Source: Candidatus Heimdallarchaeota archaeon
GTDB taxonomy: Archaea; Asgardarchaeota; Heimdallarchaeia; Heimdallarchaeales; Heimdallarchaeaceae
Length of the DNA: 24,640 bases
Direction: 5' to 3'
NCBI GenBank assembly: GCA_021399395.1
Contig: JAAFKJ010000148.1
Span: forward strand, 1-24,640
Positions 5,854 through 16,117 of this stretch are shown here, in pieces. The first letter of the stretch is position 1. Every line of letters begins with the position of its first letter. Under the pieces are notes generated by a model. The model made no database searches. It had not been told where the DNA came from and saw only the letters and a program-made list of their open reading frames with translations. Position numbers and translations under genes: made by a program.

Positions 5854-6927
5854 ATGGTTCAAGAAATTCCTCTTTTTAGAGCATACCCAAAACTAGTATC
5901 TGTTCCTTGGGTTTCAGTTGTCAACTCTCCTACACCTGTCCATAAAATGGAAGAATTAACCAGAATTTTAGACAATGGAGAGATTTGGGTAAAACGCGAT
6001 GATTTAACTCATGAAACATATGGTGGGAATAAACTACGAAAATATGAGTTTGTTTTTGCTGATGTTCTAAAAAAAGAAAAGAAGAAGATCTTAACACAAG
6101 GCAGTATTGGAACCAATCATGGATTGGCAACAGCAGTCCATGCAAAGAGATTTGGTTTGAAAACCCATTTATTTTTACTTGAACAAGAACCTTCACCAAC
6201 TGTTCTTGAAAATCTGCTGTGTCATCATTATTTTGGTGCAAAGTTATCTTTATTGAAAAACAAACTTCACAGAAAACTAGCAGTAAAAACAAAGTTACTT
6301 CTTGATAGAAAAGCATACTCGGTTGTTATTGGGGCTAGTTCTCCACTCGGAACACTAGGTTTTGTTAATGCAGCTTTTGAGCTTAAAGAACAAATAGACA
6401 AAAAACTGATACCAGAACCAGATAAAATCTTCATAACTGTTGGTTCTTTTGCTACTTGTGCCGGTTTAGTACTTGGTTTGGAACTAGCACAACTAAAGTC
6501 TCAGGTTATTGGGATTGGAGTAACAGATCCTTCTTGGAGTTCAAAAGAAGCTACTCTAGATTTAGCTACAAAGGCTTTAGAACTTATGAGAAGTAAAGAT
6601 TCGTCTATTCCTGATGTTTCAAAGAAGTTGTCAAAAAGGTTAGTAGTTGATCATTCTTATTTCGGTGGCAAATATGGTGTCTCTACAGAAGAAGCTCTAG
6701 AAGCAATTGAGCTGGCAAAGAAAGATGAACTTAAGCTTGAATATGTTTACACGGGAAAAACACTAGGCGGATTAATAGACTATAGTAGAAAATCAAAAAT
6801 TTCAAAAAATGAAGTGATTCTTTACTGGAATACAAAAAGCTCAGCAGATTTAACTCCGTATGTTAAGGAAATGAAATATCAGGATTTACCAAAAAAGTTC
6901 CACAAATTCTTTGAAGAAGTGCAATAA
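5854..6927 (+). CDS. PLP-dependent D-cysteine desulfhydrase / ACC deaminase family protein
   Basis: WVKRDD...YGGNKLRK (PLP lysine), TNH and VYTGK. The Thr in VYTGK, rather than the Glu of true ACC deaminases, favours the D-Cys desulfhydrase type. ATG at 5854 preferred over TTG at 5827. Confidence 0.88.
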   Translation: MVQEIPLFRAYPKLVSVPWVSVVNSPTPVHKMEELTRILDNGEIWVKRDDLTHETYGGNKLRKYEFVFADVLKKEKKKILTQGSIGTNHGLATAVHAKRFGLKTHLFLLEQEPSPTVLENLLCHHYFGAKLSLLKNKLHRKLAVKTKLLLDRKAYSVVIGASSPLGTLGFVNAAFELKEQIDKKLIPEPDKIFITVGSFATCAGLVLGLELAQLKSQVIGIGVTDPSWSSKEATLDLATKALELMRSKDSSIPDVSKKLSKRLVVDHSYFGGKYGVSTEEALEAIELAKKDELKLEYVYTGKTLGGLIDYSRKSKISKNEVILYWNTKSSADLTPYVKEMKYQDLPKKFHKFFEEVQ

Positions 6928-6953
6928 TGTCGTCAAGCTTGAAATTAAATTAG

Positions 6954-7020
6954 TGTTGAGAATCAGCTTACCTCGAACAATCATAAATCAGACAGGGGTA
7001 ACCAAATCATTTTCTCAACA
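6954..7020 (-). ncRNA. Box C/D 2'-O-methylation guide sRNA (double guide, large-subunit rRNA peptidyl-transferase centre)
   Basis: Minus strand reads TGTTGAGAA-A-[ATGATTT]-GGTTACCCCTGT-[CTGA]-TTT-[ATGATTG]-TTCGAGGTAAG-[CTGA]-TTCTCAACA. It has a perfect 9-bp terminal stem, boxes in C/D'/C'/D order, and 12- and 11-nt guides complementary to conserved 23S PTC sequences. Confidence 0.85.
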
Positions 7021-7073
7021 AATATCAATTTAACAAAAATAAAATAGTGTTTTGGTTTGTTACTTATGTAATA

Positions 7074-7685
7074 TTATTCTGTTTCTTTAACATATTCAGA
7101 CTTTAACATACCAAAATAGAATAACCCAAACCGTTTACCTGCATCAATATAGCCTTCTCTGAAGTGTCCTTCTTTAACGAAATTCAATCTCTCTGCTAGT
7201 TTATAGCTATCTTCATTATTATCTCTTGTAATCAATATTATTTTATATGCTCTTAATTCATCAAAAACGAAATCCATACTTCGTCTTACTGCTTCTGTTG
7301 CTAATCCTTTCTTTGTGTAACCTTGATCAAGGTAATAACCGATTTCAAATGATGGAACTTCCCATTTATTCGGTTCAATCCAGATATTACCAATAAAATC
7401 CTTAGTTTCCTTTGACCAAATTCCCATAACAAATCTAGTTCGATTAATGAAATCTGCAGCTAATGAACGAATGCGGATTTCTGCATCTTCTAAGGATTGA
7501 ACATCCATTGCTTCATCAACTGCTTCCCTTAGAAACTCTCGATTATCATTTCTATCTAGTAAATTCAAAAGCCCCTCCCCATCTCCTTTGTCAAACTTTC
7601 TGATAACAAGTCTATCTGTCTCAATTTGAGTAGGTAAATCCAATAACTGTTTCAACACTTCCTTTTTTTCTTTACTAGATCTCAA
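7074..7685 (-). CDS. GNAT family N-acetyltransferase, RimJ/RimL type
   Basis: IETDRLVIR start, EIGYYL..YTKKGLATEA (motif A), N..S..LAERLNF.KEG. Confidence 0.9.
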   Translation of the reverse strand: MRSSKEKKEVLKQLLDLPTQIETDRLVIRKFDKGDGEGLLNLLDRNDNREFLREAVDEAMDVQSLEDAEIRIRSLAADFINRTRFVMGIWSKETKDFIGNIWIEPNKWEVPSFEIGYYLDQGYTKKGLATEAVRRSMDFVFDELRAYKIILITRDNNEDSYKLAERLNFVKEGHFREGYIDAGKRFGLFYFGMLKSEYVKETE

Positions 7686-7867: not shown

Positions 7868-10027
7868 CTAAGAAGAATTCTTGCTTTTGTTAAAGACTAG
7901 GCTCTTGACTGTTACAGGGAAAGCTTGACCGGAATAGAGCGGTGCACCGATGTCTATCCAATCTCCTTCTTCTAGTTCTAATTCATCCATACAAATGAGG
8001 TTGTCCTTTAAAGCTGTATCTCTACGAAGAGCAATTCCTATAGATCCTCCCATATCTTGGTCAAAAATCAGAATCACCAGTTTGTTGTCAACAACTGAAT
8101 TTGGCAAAGCTTCTGCGATTGCTTTAGCGAGATCTGACAGATAGAAATTGTTTCTATATATTGGATCTTTGAAGTATAAAGCAACTAAATCCTCTCCTTC
8201 ATGCATATCAAATCTTCTGAAAGCAATATCTATCTCTTTCTTAAGATTCTCTTGACTGTATTTTTCTTTTTGAATATTTACATTTATTACAGGAATGTTC
8301 TCAAGAGGGAATAGGATGCTCTTATCAAAATAACAAGTAGATCCAGATACTGAAAGTGAAAATGATCCTGCACCAATAACTGTAGCTCTGATTTTATTTT
8401 CAGGCTCTAATATAGGTAATTTGTATTTTTTCATTAAAACTTGGATTTCTTCTGCAAGGTATACACCAATATCATCATATTTGTTATCCTGACCATAAAT
8501 GAATTCAGCAACTCCTCCAGAGAATGAATAACAATCAATTGGGATTGAAAAACCTAAATCGTCAGTCATCATCAGTTTCTTAGCAATTTTACTTTTTGCA
8601 GGTCCTTTCATTACTTCAACCAAAGCTTTTGCATATTCTTGAGCTACTAATCTAACATCTTTTTCGGGAATAATTTCCCCAATTTTATGGTCTAGACCTA
8701 GTTCTTTAAAGAGGAACTCAGTGGGTTCGTCTATCCTCCAGATTTTGAAATCTTTATCAATTCCTAGTAATCTTCCGCCAACATTTATGCAAGATGTACT
8801 AGTAACTTGCCCCTTTGACGCAATTGCAAGATTACTGGTTCCTCCCCCAACATCTATATTCATTATTGTATTCTCTTCTTCTTGTGTCTGATCAACAATA
8901 CCGCTTCCCATAGCTCCAAGCAGAGATTCAAAATTTGGTCCTGCTGCGGCACTGACAAATTTTCCAGTTGTAGAAGACAATCTTTTTACTATTTCCTCTG
9001 CATTTTGTTTCTTAGCTGTTTCTCCAGTAACTATAACAGCTCCTGTATCTACCATCTCTGTAGTAATTCCAGCTTTCTTGTATTCTCCTTCAAAGAATTC
9101 AACAACAGCATCAATATCGATAGTAAAGCGGTCTATTATGGGAGTGTCAATAATATTGCCCTCATAGATTAATTTACGGTTAATAAGATGAAAACGGTTA
9201 GACATATTCATGAAACTCTGTTCTCTTCTAAGAGTTAAACCAGAAAATACAAGATGCGATGTAGAAGAGCCAACATCAATTCCAACACTTAGAACATTAA
9301 GATATTCACCAATATCATCATTTGCTTGAGAAAGAATTTCAGGGAAGATTTCAGCTAACTTGTTAGTACTTAGCTGTATTTTTTCAATTTCTGCTCTAGA
9401 ATAACCCATTAACTCTCTTGCAGATTTAACTTTGAAAGCTGGTTTATCACTTTTCAGCTCAAATGAATCCTCTACAACATTTACGATTCTTATCTCTAAC
9501 TCTTTATCATGGTGTTTGGGTAATTCCACTCTCTCATCTGAATTTAACAACTGTTCCTTCAAATCTTCAGGAATGTCTAAGAATTCTTCGCAGACAGTAC
9601 AGAAGAATTTGATTGTGGATGTTTTATCGCTACCTGGAAGAATTGGTCCATTTTCAGTAGGACGTCGGATCTTATTATCAACCTGTCTTTGAATACCAGC
9701 TAGACTGATATCAAACATTTCTGCCATTCTATCGCATATACTTTCATAGATTTGACCTTTTTCAACAACTGATTCAAGTGCCAATCTAAATTCTGAAATA
9801 AGACGATAATATTGTAAGAGTTCTGTTTTATCTTCTTGTTCATTTTGTTTAACAAGTGTATCGTACTTTTCTTCGAATGTCTTTCTCAATTCTTCTGCAT
9901 TCTCTTTGTTGTATCGGTCTAAGAACGCATGAACAATTCCTACTATTGACCATTTTTGAGTTGCTATATCGACTTTAATGTTAGATCCGTCAACTGATTT
10001 CTTTGACATATGTTGAAAAAATACCAT
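7868..10027 (-). CDS. eutA: EutA-family (ethanolamine ammonia-lyase reactivase-like, ASKHA ATPase) protein with a ~240-aa N-terminal extension
   Basis: LSVGIDVGSSTSHLVFS, TGAVIVTGETAKKQNA, FVSAAAGPNFES..GAMGSG, NIDVGGGTSN, IRATVIGAG and WIDIG...PVTVKSLVF are EutA hallmarks. The start may be the second Met. Confidence 0.85.
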   Translation of the reverse strand: MVFFQHMSKKSVDGSNIKVDIATQKWSIVGIVHAFLDRYNKENAEELRKTFEEKYDTLVKQNEQEDKTELLQYYRLISEFRLALESVVEKGQIYESICDRMAEMFDISLAGIQRQVDNKIRRPTENGPILPGSDKTSTIKFFCTVCEEFLDIPEDLKEQLLNSDERVELPKHHDKELEIRIVNVVEDSFELKSDKPAFKVKSARELMGYSRAEIEKIQLSTNKLAEIFPEILSQANDDIGEYLNVLSVGIDVGSSTSHLVFSGLTLRREQSFMNMSNRFHLINRKLIYEGNIIDTPIIDRFTIDIDAVVEFFEGEYKKAGITTEMVDTGAVIVTGETAKKQNAEEIVKRLSSTTGKFVSAAAGPNFESLLGAMGSGIVDQTQEEENTIMNIDVGGGTSNLAIASKGQVTSTSCINVGGRLLGIDKDFKIWRIDEPTEFLFKELGLDHKIGEIIPEKDVRLVAQEYAKALVEVMKGPAKSKIAKKLMMTDDLGFSIPIDCYSFSGGVAEFIYGQDNKYDDIGVYLAEEIQVLMKKYKLPILEPENKIRATVIGAGSFSLSVSGSTCYFDKSILFPLENIPVINVNIQKEKYSQENLKKEIDIAFRRFDMHEGEDLVALYFKDPIYRNNFYLSDLAKAIAEALPNSVVDNKLVILIFDQDMGGSIGIALRRDTALKDNLICMDELELEEGDWIDIGAPLYSGQAFPVTVKSLVFNKSKNSS

Positions 10028-16008: not shown

Positions 16009-16117
16009 GCCTCAATGGTGTAGCTCGGCCAATCATTGCGGACTTTCACATGAGAAAGTCCGCGTGACTAAACAGGAATATCCGCAGACCCGGGTTCAAA
16101 TCCCGGTTGAGGCACCA
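16009..16117 (+). tRNA. tRNA-Glu(TTC) with 31-nt anticodon-loop intron, CCA encoded
   Basis: Acceptor GCCTCAA/TTGAGGC-A-CCA, archaeal Glu-type D arm (GTGTAG..CGGCCAATCAT), anticodon stem GCGGA/TCCGC separated by CTTTC plus 33 nt, and T arm CCGGG-TTCAAAT-CCCGG. Confidence 0.9.

Follow-up and report, generated by a model that had tools for sequence, protein, structure and literature searches.

The window, i.e., the whole stretch of 24,640 nt that we analyzed, is contig C56 of a Heimdallarchaeote metagenome-assembled genome (MAG) of 2.8 Mb (201 contigs, 34% G+C, 81.8% completeness). A 146-nt gap in this contig separates the 3' ends of a PALP gene for a PLP-dependent enzyme (+ strand, ending at 6927) and a gene for a GNAT acetyltransferase (- strand, ending at 7074), and within it lies the gene for a 65-nt box C/D sRNA (Table 1). 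The initial annotation had proposed a guide with its box at 6988-7003. The + strand reads TCAGACAGGGGTAACC at these positions and its reverse complement is GGTTACCCCTGT-CTGA as claimed, and the feature is embedded in a complete C/D architecture on the minus strand. The accompanying view that this is an Asgard genome was also borne out, since relatives of the neighboring PLP enzyme gene, at 70-89% identity, are titled Heimdallarchaeota.

Table 1. Coordinates of the box C/D sRNA gene and its elements in the window
Feature	Position	Strand	Basis and remarks
Whole box C/D sRNA gene, 65 nt	6955..7019	-	Covariance model R1, 89.6 bits; Rfam matches across this span: RF00213, 31.8 bits, and RF00095, 19.5 bits
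Terminal stem, 5' half, GUUGAGAA	7012..7019	-	Pairs with UUCUCAAC at 6955-6962
C box AUGAUUU	7004..7010	-	RUGAUGA variant with the UGA core kept; AUGAUU invariant in 10 aligned and 9 further family copies
D' guide, 12 nt, GGUUACCCCUGU	6992..7003	-	Positions 2-11 complementary to 23S 2443-2452; position 5 opposite G2446
D' box CUGA	6988..6991	-	Read from the sequence; invariant in the alignment; CGGA in paralogous type C copies
C' box AUGAUUG	6978..6984	-	AUGA invariant; remainder differs among copies (AUGAUGU, AUGAUGA, AUGAGGU)
D guide, 11 nt, UUCGAGGUAAG	6967..6977	-	Target uncertain; best candidate 23S UACCUCGA, 8 bp, position 5 opposite C2498
D box CUGA	6963..6966	-	CUGA in 7 of 10 aligned copies; UUGA in G001; AUGA in both genus g12 copies
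Terminal stem, 3' half, UUCUCAAC	6955..6962	-	Complement of 7012-7019
A/T-rich TATA-like element, CTATTTTAT	7039..7047	-	~20-28 nt upstream of the first stem base; putative promoter

The 8-bp terminal stem brings the C and D boxes together, with one A between the stem and the C box and UUU between the D' and C' boxes. The C box deviates from the consensus by UU for GA at positions 6-7, and this variant is constant in the family. The RNA thus has the C and D boxes and stem of archaeal box C/D sRNAs, their internal D' and C' boxes with spacers of 12 and 11 nt, and a ~10-bp guide that sets its target nucleotide at position 5 on congeneric 23S rRNA. The protein partners are encoded in the same genome, where the fibrillarin gene (308.9 bits) adjoins that for Nop5 (229.4 bits) and an L7Ae gene was found as well (91.5 bits). 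With regard to expression, TTATATTTT is found at the same upstream distance as the TATA-like element in four copies of other genomes (L013, L014, L016, and L018), which suggests that the sRNA may be an independent transcription unit with a TATA-like element of its own.

At gathering thresholds, Rfam returned no sRNA match in the window but only four tRNAs. One of these, at 16009-16114 (+), spans 106 nt against a 71-position model and probably bears an intron. In addition, the 719-aa ORF at 7868-10027 (-) comprises a full EutA (ethanolamine utilization reactivase) domain preceded by an N-terminal extension of ~240 aa.

We also searched the host genome for further C/D sRNAs. A first strict regular expression had found this sRNA and one doubtful candidate only, and a scan anchored on rRNA complementarity was dropped as too noisy (151 real versus 43 control matches). 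The strict motif scan gave four candidates, three of them convincing, with none in the reversed control. Besides the sRNA described here, the convincing ones lie outside the window, at C21:15751-15802 (-) and C127:7397-7444 (-) of the host genome (G000), and their D' guides match 10-mers of congeneric 23S and 16S rRNA. This suggests a small C/D sRNA repertoire, given that a motif scan is surely incomplete. The 12-mer guide complement does not occur a second time in the 2.8-Mb genome.

The sRNA is conserved among close relatives of the host. Within the order, 10 of 47 genomes contain the guide-plus-box pattern GTTACCCCTGNCTGA, whereas the reversed control had no match. In an alignment of 10 copies, GUUACCCCUG is invariant, guide positions 1 and 12 vary, and variation is greatest in the D guide; the terminal stem is kept in all 10, where the only changes are single mismatches or substitutions that still allow a G.U pair. 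With a covariance model derived from the alignment, 17 of the 83 genomes of the class proved to have the sRNA; these belong without exception to family f1 and cover all five genera of that family, and there was no match in families f2-f7. Within the genus of the host, it was not detected in 14 of the 24 congeners, whose MAGs are incomplete.

Further comparison revealed three subtypes in f1 with a common backbone. Type A, which the window shares with four further genomes, carries the D guide UUCGAGGUAAG, and type B (four genomes) a D guide of the form UAUC...GG. The D guide of type C, AAUUGCAUA, is complementary to AUAUGCAAUU ~860 nt into the 23S rRNA, and its D' box is CGGA; four other genera have this type, and in the genus of the window it is present as second copies. 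Synteny with a PALP gene holds at 7 of 16 Heimdallarchaeote loci, the sRNA lying downstream of the gene in three and upstream in four.

No 23S gene is assembled in the host MAG, so the target was read from its relatives, 19 of 31 of which have a 23S gene, and from metagenome contigs. The peptidyl-transferase ring reads ...AAAAGUUAC(C/U)CCAGGGGUAAC... in all five congeneric 23S genes, and UCAGGGGUAAC in five 23S genes from other families of the order. We take this motif to contain A2451 in E. coli numbering, which would make UAAC positions 2449-2452. Because 10 Watson-Crick pairs join guide positions 2-11 to C2443-C2452 in all five congeneric genes, with position 5 opposite G2446, we regard G2446 as the well-supported predicted target of the D' guide. 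The C at position 7 stands opposite G2448, and the U at position 1 faces C2442, unpaired. Among 200 shuffles, 4 matched the score of the guide anywhere in the rRNA loci. The copies in other genomes differ slightly in their pairing: G at position 1 of the G017 copy adds an eleventh pair, to C2442, and the G004 copy has a G.U at 2447. Two genomes (G005 and G002) hold both the sRNA and a matching 23S gene. In addition, the congeneric 23S target is covered by metagenome contigs in four of four sediment and cold-seep runs (two of which are possibly source samples), with no listed difference; these contigs attest the target in the samples and are not assignable to the host genome.

The pairing also bears on the composition of the guide. 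A U at position 7 fits A or G at 2448, whereas C fits G only. The initial annotation had predicted either a tolerated mismatch or an unusual G at 2448. The G is indeed present, as GGGGUAAC, in the five congeneric and five other 23S genes of the same order, and the archaeal Rfam consensus is GGGAUAAC. It is not unusual, however: a 23S-specific pattern found G2448 in at least 120 archaeal records from Nitrososphaeria, Thermoproteota, Heimdall, Odin, and Jord lineages, Archaeoglobaceae, and DPANN. Likewise, the guide had been thought to imply a eukaryote-type ACAGGG target. The relatives do have CAGGG, but in the context CCAGGGG or UCAGGGG, so that the last U of the guide is unpaired, and guides of the CAGGG type are not confined to Asgard archaea, as illustrated by a Hydrothermarchaeota sRNA that carries the exact eukaryotic guide.

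For the D guide, the rRNA match of UUCGAGGUAAG is not above shuffles, 138 of 200 of which reach the observed score; nor did any of seven D guide variants tried against rRNA rise above them (23 to 190 of 200 reach the observed score). By inspection, the pairing with UACCUCGA extends to 9 bp in the G017 variant, and the candidate site C2498 lies across from the D' target, on the strand that exits helix 89. We consider the D guide evolutionarily labile, and that of the window copy may address C2498 across helix 89. A near-identical guide, AAUCGAGGUAAG, was found in the other slot of sRNAs with the 2446 guide in a Pyrolobus MAG and a Desulfurococcales MAG. These sRNAs (L363 and L396) have the 2446 guide in the D slot and AAUCGAGGUAAG or AAUCGAGGUAGA in the D' slot, and their guide pair is nearly that of the window sRNA with the slots swapped. 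The segment UACCUCGAU is carried by 23S genes of the Desulfurococcales order too, as read in other genomes of that order; 4 of 26 matched in the search for such genes, three in a 23S gene and one by chance in a protein-coding sequence. The recurrence of the 2446 guide with a AAUCGAGGUAAG-like partner in Heimdall and Desulfurococcales lineages is suggestive, as far as sequence comparison goes.

The initial annotation had described a nearly identical guide in yeast snR38 and human SNORD1, and this proved accurate. The RF00213 (snoR38) consensus guide GUUAUCCCUGUCUGA aligns with GUUACCCCUGUCUGA of the window; register and slot (D') agree, and the single difference is U to C at guide position 7. 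An Rfam scan of window positions 6800-7200 (401 nt) returned RF00213 as the best match, but its 31.8 bits fall short of the cut-off of 45, and the E-value of 0.0023 holds for this 401-nt search only. The RNA therefore shares the D' guide for the G2446 equivalent with RF00213 and does not reach the gathering score of that family; the alignment matches the stem, boxes, and guide only, with no further similarity that would mark common descent. As controls, sRNAs from a Hydrothermarchaeota MAG and from Methanothermococcus scored 39.8 and 33.9 bits against RF00213. Because these non-Asgard sRNAs outscore the Heimdall sRNA, the Rfam similarity is driven by the guide and boxes and is not specific to Asgard archaea. 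The archaeal model RF00095 (snoPyro_CD) gave 19.5 bits against a cut-off of 45, and 46 bits for a Hydrothermarchaeota control.

With the aim of placing the guide in a wider context, we analyzed its occurrence in other archaea. A relaxed pattern (C box, guide core, and NNGA) matched 34 of 83 genomes of the class and two in the control. By family, it was found in 14 of 30 genomes of f1 plus the window's own genome, in 18 of 22 of f5, in 1 of 12 of f3, and in none of the rest. The sRNA of f5, a family that includes a record titled Hodarchaeota, was recovered by BLAST in 20 of 22 genomes at E<=1, and GUUAUCCCCGN is present in 19 homologous copies. It differs from the window sRNA in its stem, its degenerate D' box, and the presence of an internal hairpin. 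Its D guide, GAAGAGCCGU, is conserved and by our own pairing would address C2510. Throughout these copies (L419-L437) both guides are kept and the hairpin between D' and C' is conserved, and the D' box drifts (CUGA, CAGA, AUGA, UUGA, AGGA, and UAGA). In one f5 genome (G068), G2448 of the 23S faces the U of the guide as a G.U pair.

The guide also occurs in the class that includes a Thorarchaeota-titled record, in 17 of 61 sampled genomes and 8 of 17 genera, with no match in the control. Many copies read precisely GUUACCCCUGU and follow the C box GUGAAGC, and most have C at position 7, like the window. In another Asgard class, with one match in 51 sampled genomes versus two in the control, it was not found. 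A 15-nt pattern search of species genomes gave nearly only chance bacterial matches and one useful Thorarchaeota locus.

Across 185,579 species genomes, TGATGANGTTAYCCCNNNCTGA has 51 exact matches, 35 of which are in archaeal-titled records (Woesearchaeota, Methanosarcinales, Methanothermococcus, Nanoarchaeota, Desulfurococcales/Pyrolobus, Marsarchaeota, Hydrothermarchaeota, Hodarchaeota, and two titled simply "archaeon"). A regular expression recognized C/D architecture in 31 of these 35 (27 with a D'-slot guide and 4 with a D-slot guide) and left 4 unclassified, whereas 14 of the 16 non-archaeal matches have no C/D context. The Methanothermococcus guide forms 11 Watson-Crick pairs with the 23S rRNA of its own genome; a pattern search did not find the 23S genes of the sRNA-bearing Thorarchaeota, Hydrothermarchaeota, Pyrolobus, and Desulfurococcales MAGs. 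In seven sRNAs of Methanosarcinales, Woesearchaeota, and Nanoarchaeota MAGs (L361, L378, L390, L394, L400, L403, and L410), the partner guide resembles GGAGUAACUG. Its complement would adjoin the 5' side of the 2446 target, so that both guides would lie on one continuous stretch of rRNA.

Collectively, these data make it highly probable that the locus encodes a functional Heimdallarchaeote box C/D sRNA that guides 2'-O-methylation of G2446, i.e., a functional counterpart of snR38/SNORD1 that is one of many archaeal guides for this site and not a demonstrable Asgard-specific orthologue. The gene has the complete architecture, its elements are conserved in related genomes, its guide is complementary to the rRNA of relatives, and its host encodes the protein machinery. 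We infer that it is transcribed and assembled into an RNP. In this RNP, the C/D boxes, closed by the 8-bp stem, and the C'/D' boxes would each fold into a kink-turn or k-loop that is bound by L7Ae, after which Nop5 and the methyltransferase fibrillarin would assemble. The 12-nt D' guide would then pair with the 23S strand 2443-2452 in the peptidyl-transferase ring, and fibrillarin would 2'-O-methylate the nucleotide opposite guide position 5. This is G2446, which is also the nucleotide guided by snR38/SNORD1/snoR38. The archaeal guide resembles the eukaryotic one because each has to pair, in the same register, with one rRNA motif that hardly varies, and the single U-to-C difference tracks the lineage's G at 2448.

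How the Heimdallarchaeote and eukaryotic guides came to be alike is a separate question. They may have arisen independently, if methylation at G2446 is useful and C/D sRNAs were repeatedly retargeted to it; we hold this to be a strong possibility, just short of probable. Indeed, the archaeal distribution is patchy and the stems are unrelated, the guide sits in either slot, at least four different partner guides accompany it, and guides change fast even inside one genus. Published surveys, in the parts that concern such sites, likewise hold no Pyrococcus counterpart (PMC11542601; PMC3511168). Against repeated origin stand the occurrence in three Asgard lineages, including the Hodarchaeota-titled family, which inheritance would explain equally, and the pair of the 2446 guide with UCGAGGUAAG in Heimdall type A and in the Pyrolobus/Desulfurococcales MAGs. 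Such a recurring pair may point to common ancestry, to transfer, or to a strong structural link between the two guides.

The alternative is gene-level homology, in which the Heimdall sRNA and snR38/SNORD1/snoR38 descend from one G2446 guide gene in an archaeal ancestor and their backbones and second guides have since been replaced. This we consider doubtful, even though site, register, and D' slot are the same and the guide is conserved in the Hodarchaeota-titled family (18 of 22), in Heimdall f1, and in Thorarchaeota (17 of 61). Hoeppner and Poole (2012) place RF00213 in the last eukaryotic common ancestor (LECA) (PMC3511168). Moreover, the f1 orthologues and paralogues keep their D' guide and swap their D guide, so unlike backbones do not exclude common descent. 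On the other hand, every shared letter is dictated by the target and the boxes, leaving no independent character for descent, and neither the stem nor the box variants nor the partner guide are the same in the three Asgard backbones. The guide was also not found in the 51 sampled genomes of another Asgard class (one match versus two in the control) or in f2-f4, f6, and f7 of the Heimdallarchaeia by the covariance model (the relaxed pattern matched 1 of 12 in f3), and the non-Asgard controls score higher on RF00213. The relevant passages of Hoeppner and Poole judge cross-domain homology of this kind unprovable (PMC3511168).

The initial annotation had offered, as an alternative to convergence, a specific Asgard-eukaryote snoRNA family that predates eukaryogenesis. 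In that form the proposal is not supported: guides for the site are patchy across Archaea, with different backbones and in both slots, which is an outcome that the annotation itself had named as refuting, and non-Asgard sRNAs do equally well or better against RF00213. A version of it would have the G2446 guide already present in the Asgard lineage ancestral to eukaryotes and kept in the Heimdall, Hodarchaeota-titled, and Thor families, with snR38/SNORD1 as its direct descendant. We think this rather unlikely; if true, snR38/SNORD1 would join the very small set of snoRNA genes whose history can be followed through the transition from archaeon to eukaryote. Going further still, one could propose an even older RNA, common to Heimdall and Desulfurococcales, whose two guides flank helix 89 (G2446 and C2498).

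The congeneric 23S genes have one further peculiarity. An insert of ~350 nt lies inside the catalytic-center motif, after the U2449 equivalent (L002:4046-4393, and at the same place in L004-L007), in the context ...GGGGU/AAC...CCCUG/AACAGAG, where slashes mark the junctions. The junction is ambiguous within AAC, and the guide complement is therefore kept in precursor and mature RNA alike. A group I intron model gave no match to the insert at E<=10, and no canonical bulge-helix-bulge was seen there by inspection. The metagenome contigs contain a different insert, of 340 nt, at the same point, and in other families of the order the insert lies ~25 nt further 3'.

The sRNA could act mainly as an RNA chaperone for the folding or processing of this interrupted region, with methylation secondary or absent. 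The guide target spans the insertion point, and the 3' end of the insert is complementary to the very exon bases that the guide binds, a finding that counts against our preferred reading. The candidate second target around C2498, seen by inspection, would lie across helix 89 from the first, and dual guides on nearby sites are a known archaeal theme in the part of the literature concerned (PMC7994747). We nevertheless regard a chaperone role as improbable, since the register puts the conserved G exactly at position 5, the boxes for placing fibrillarin are intact, the same guide occurs in lineages without a 23S insert at the site, and the D guide match is not above chance. Least credible of all, to the point of being very improbable, is a real target in 16S rRNA (GUAGGGGUAAUG near nt 270) or an mRNA instead of 23S G2446: the 16S site, the best alternative pairing, offers 8 Watson-Crick and 2-3 G.U pairs in four of the five congeneric 16S genes, and two other genomic 10-mer matches lie on contigs C111 and C176, but pairing is stronger at the 23S site (10 Watson-Crick pairs in all five congeneric 23S genes), the variable guide positions 1 and 12 fall outside the 23S duplex, the position-7 U guides of other lineages fit their own 23S rRNA, and partner guides elsewhere aim at neighboring 23S segments.

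We therefore return to a methylation guide for G2446 as the preferred reading. Its functional equivalence with snR38/SNORD1 is well supported, whereas gene-level homology with them is unproven and not Asgard-specific. Common descent cannot be shown because similar guides occur in many archaea and, the identity of the guide being forced by its target, guide similarity alone cannot prove snoRNA homology. As an archaeal target, the site is old and has been used recurrently, and the archaeal groups nearest to eukaryotes conserve it. The catalytic-center G methylated in yeast, plants, and humans is thus addressed by guides in many archaea, among them those most closely related to eukaryotes, and this adds snR38/SNORD1 to the cross-domain site equivalences and addresses the question of which individual snoRNAs predate eukaryotes. 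Continuity of the G2446 modification becomes testable on Asgard cultures or enrichments.

Only a few cross-domain site equivalences are named in the published comparisons, in the sections that treat such sites, and snR38/SNORD1 is not among them (PMC3511168; PMC11542601). Hoeppner and Poole list sR12/snR70 and a few others with archaeal site equivalents, and snR38 is not named in that part of their study (PMC3511168). The portion of a 2024 review that covers the site records it in plants, human, yeast, and an alga and is blank for Pyrococcus abyssi (PMC11542601). Our literature search, which covered article texts, found no catalogue of Asgard C/D sRNAs and no archaeal counterpart of snR38.

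Among known systems, yeast snR38, human SNORD1A-C, and plant snoR38 (RF00213) have their guide upstream of the D' box as the window RNA does, with an 11-nt core that differs by one base and in the same register, and hence on the same catalytic-center G. The window RNA differs from them in length (65 nt versus 91 model positions), in its compact archaeal spacers of 11-12 nt, in its C box AUGAUUU, and in its stand-alone gene with a TATA-like element. With the archaeal dual-guide C/D sRNAs of the Pyrococcus family (RF00095), it shares a size of ~55-65 nt, four boxes, spacers of ~12 nt, a short terminal stem, and the presence of L7Ae, Nop5, and fibrillarin genes; unlike that family, it has a degenerate C box, an AT-rich backbone, and a stem that is unusually long at 8 bp, in a genome where only 3-4 such genes were found. 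The 2446 sRNAs of other lineages have in common with it the guide core GUUAYCCC followed by 3 nt and the box, mostly in the D' slot, and differ in stems, box variants, and partner guides (GAAGAGCCGU, ACGGUGAGCAG, GGAGUAACUG, and AUAACAUCGAUGUG); most non-Asgard matches and the Hodarchaeota-titled family have U at position 7, unlike the C of the window. A likeness of the same kind, in the guide only, is described in the pertinent part of PMC3511168 for sR12 and snR70-SNORD43, an archaeal and a LECA-level guide that act on an equivalent rRNA position, albeit at another site than the one addressed here.
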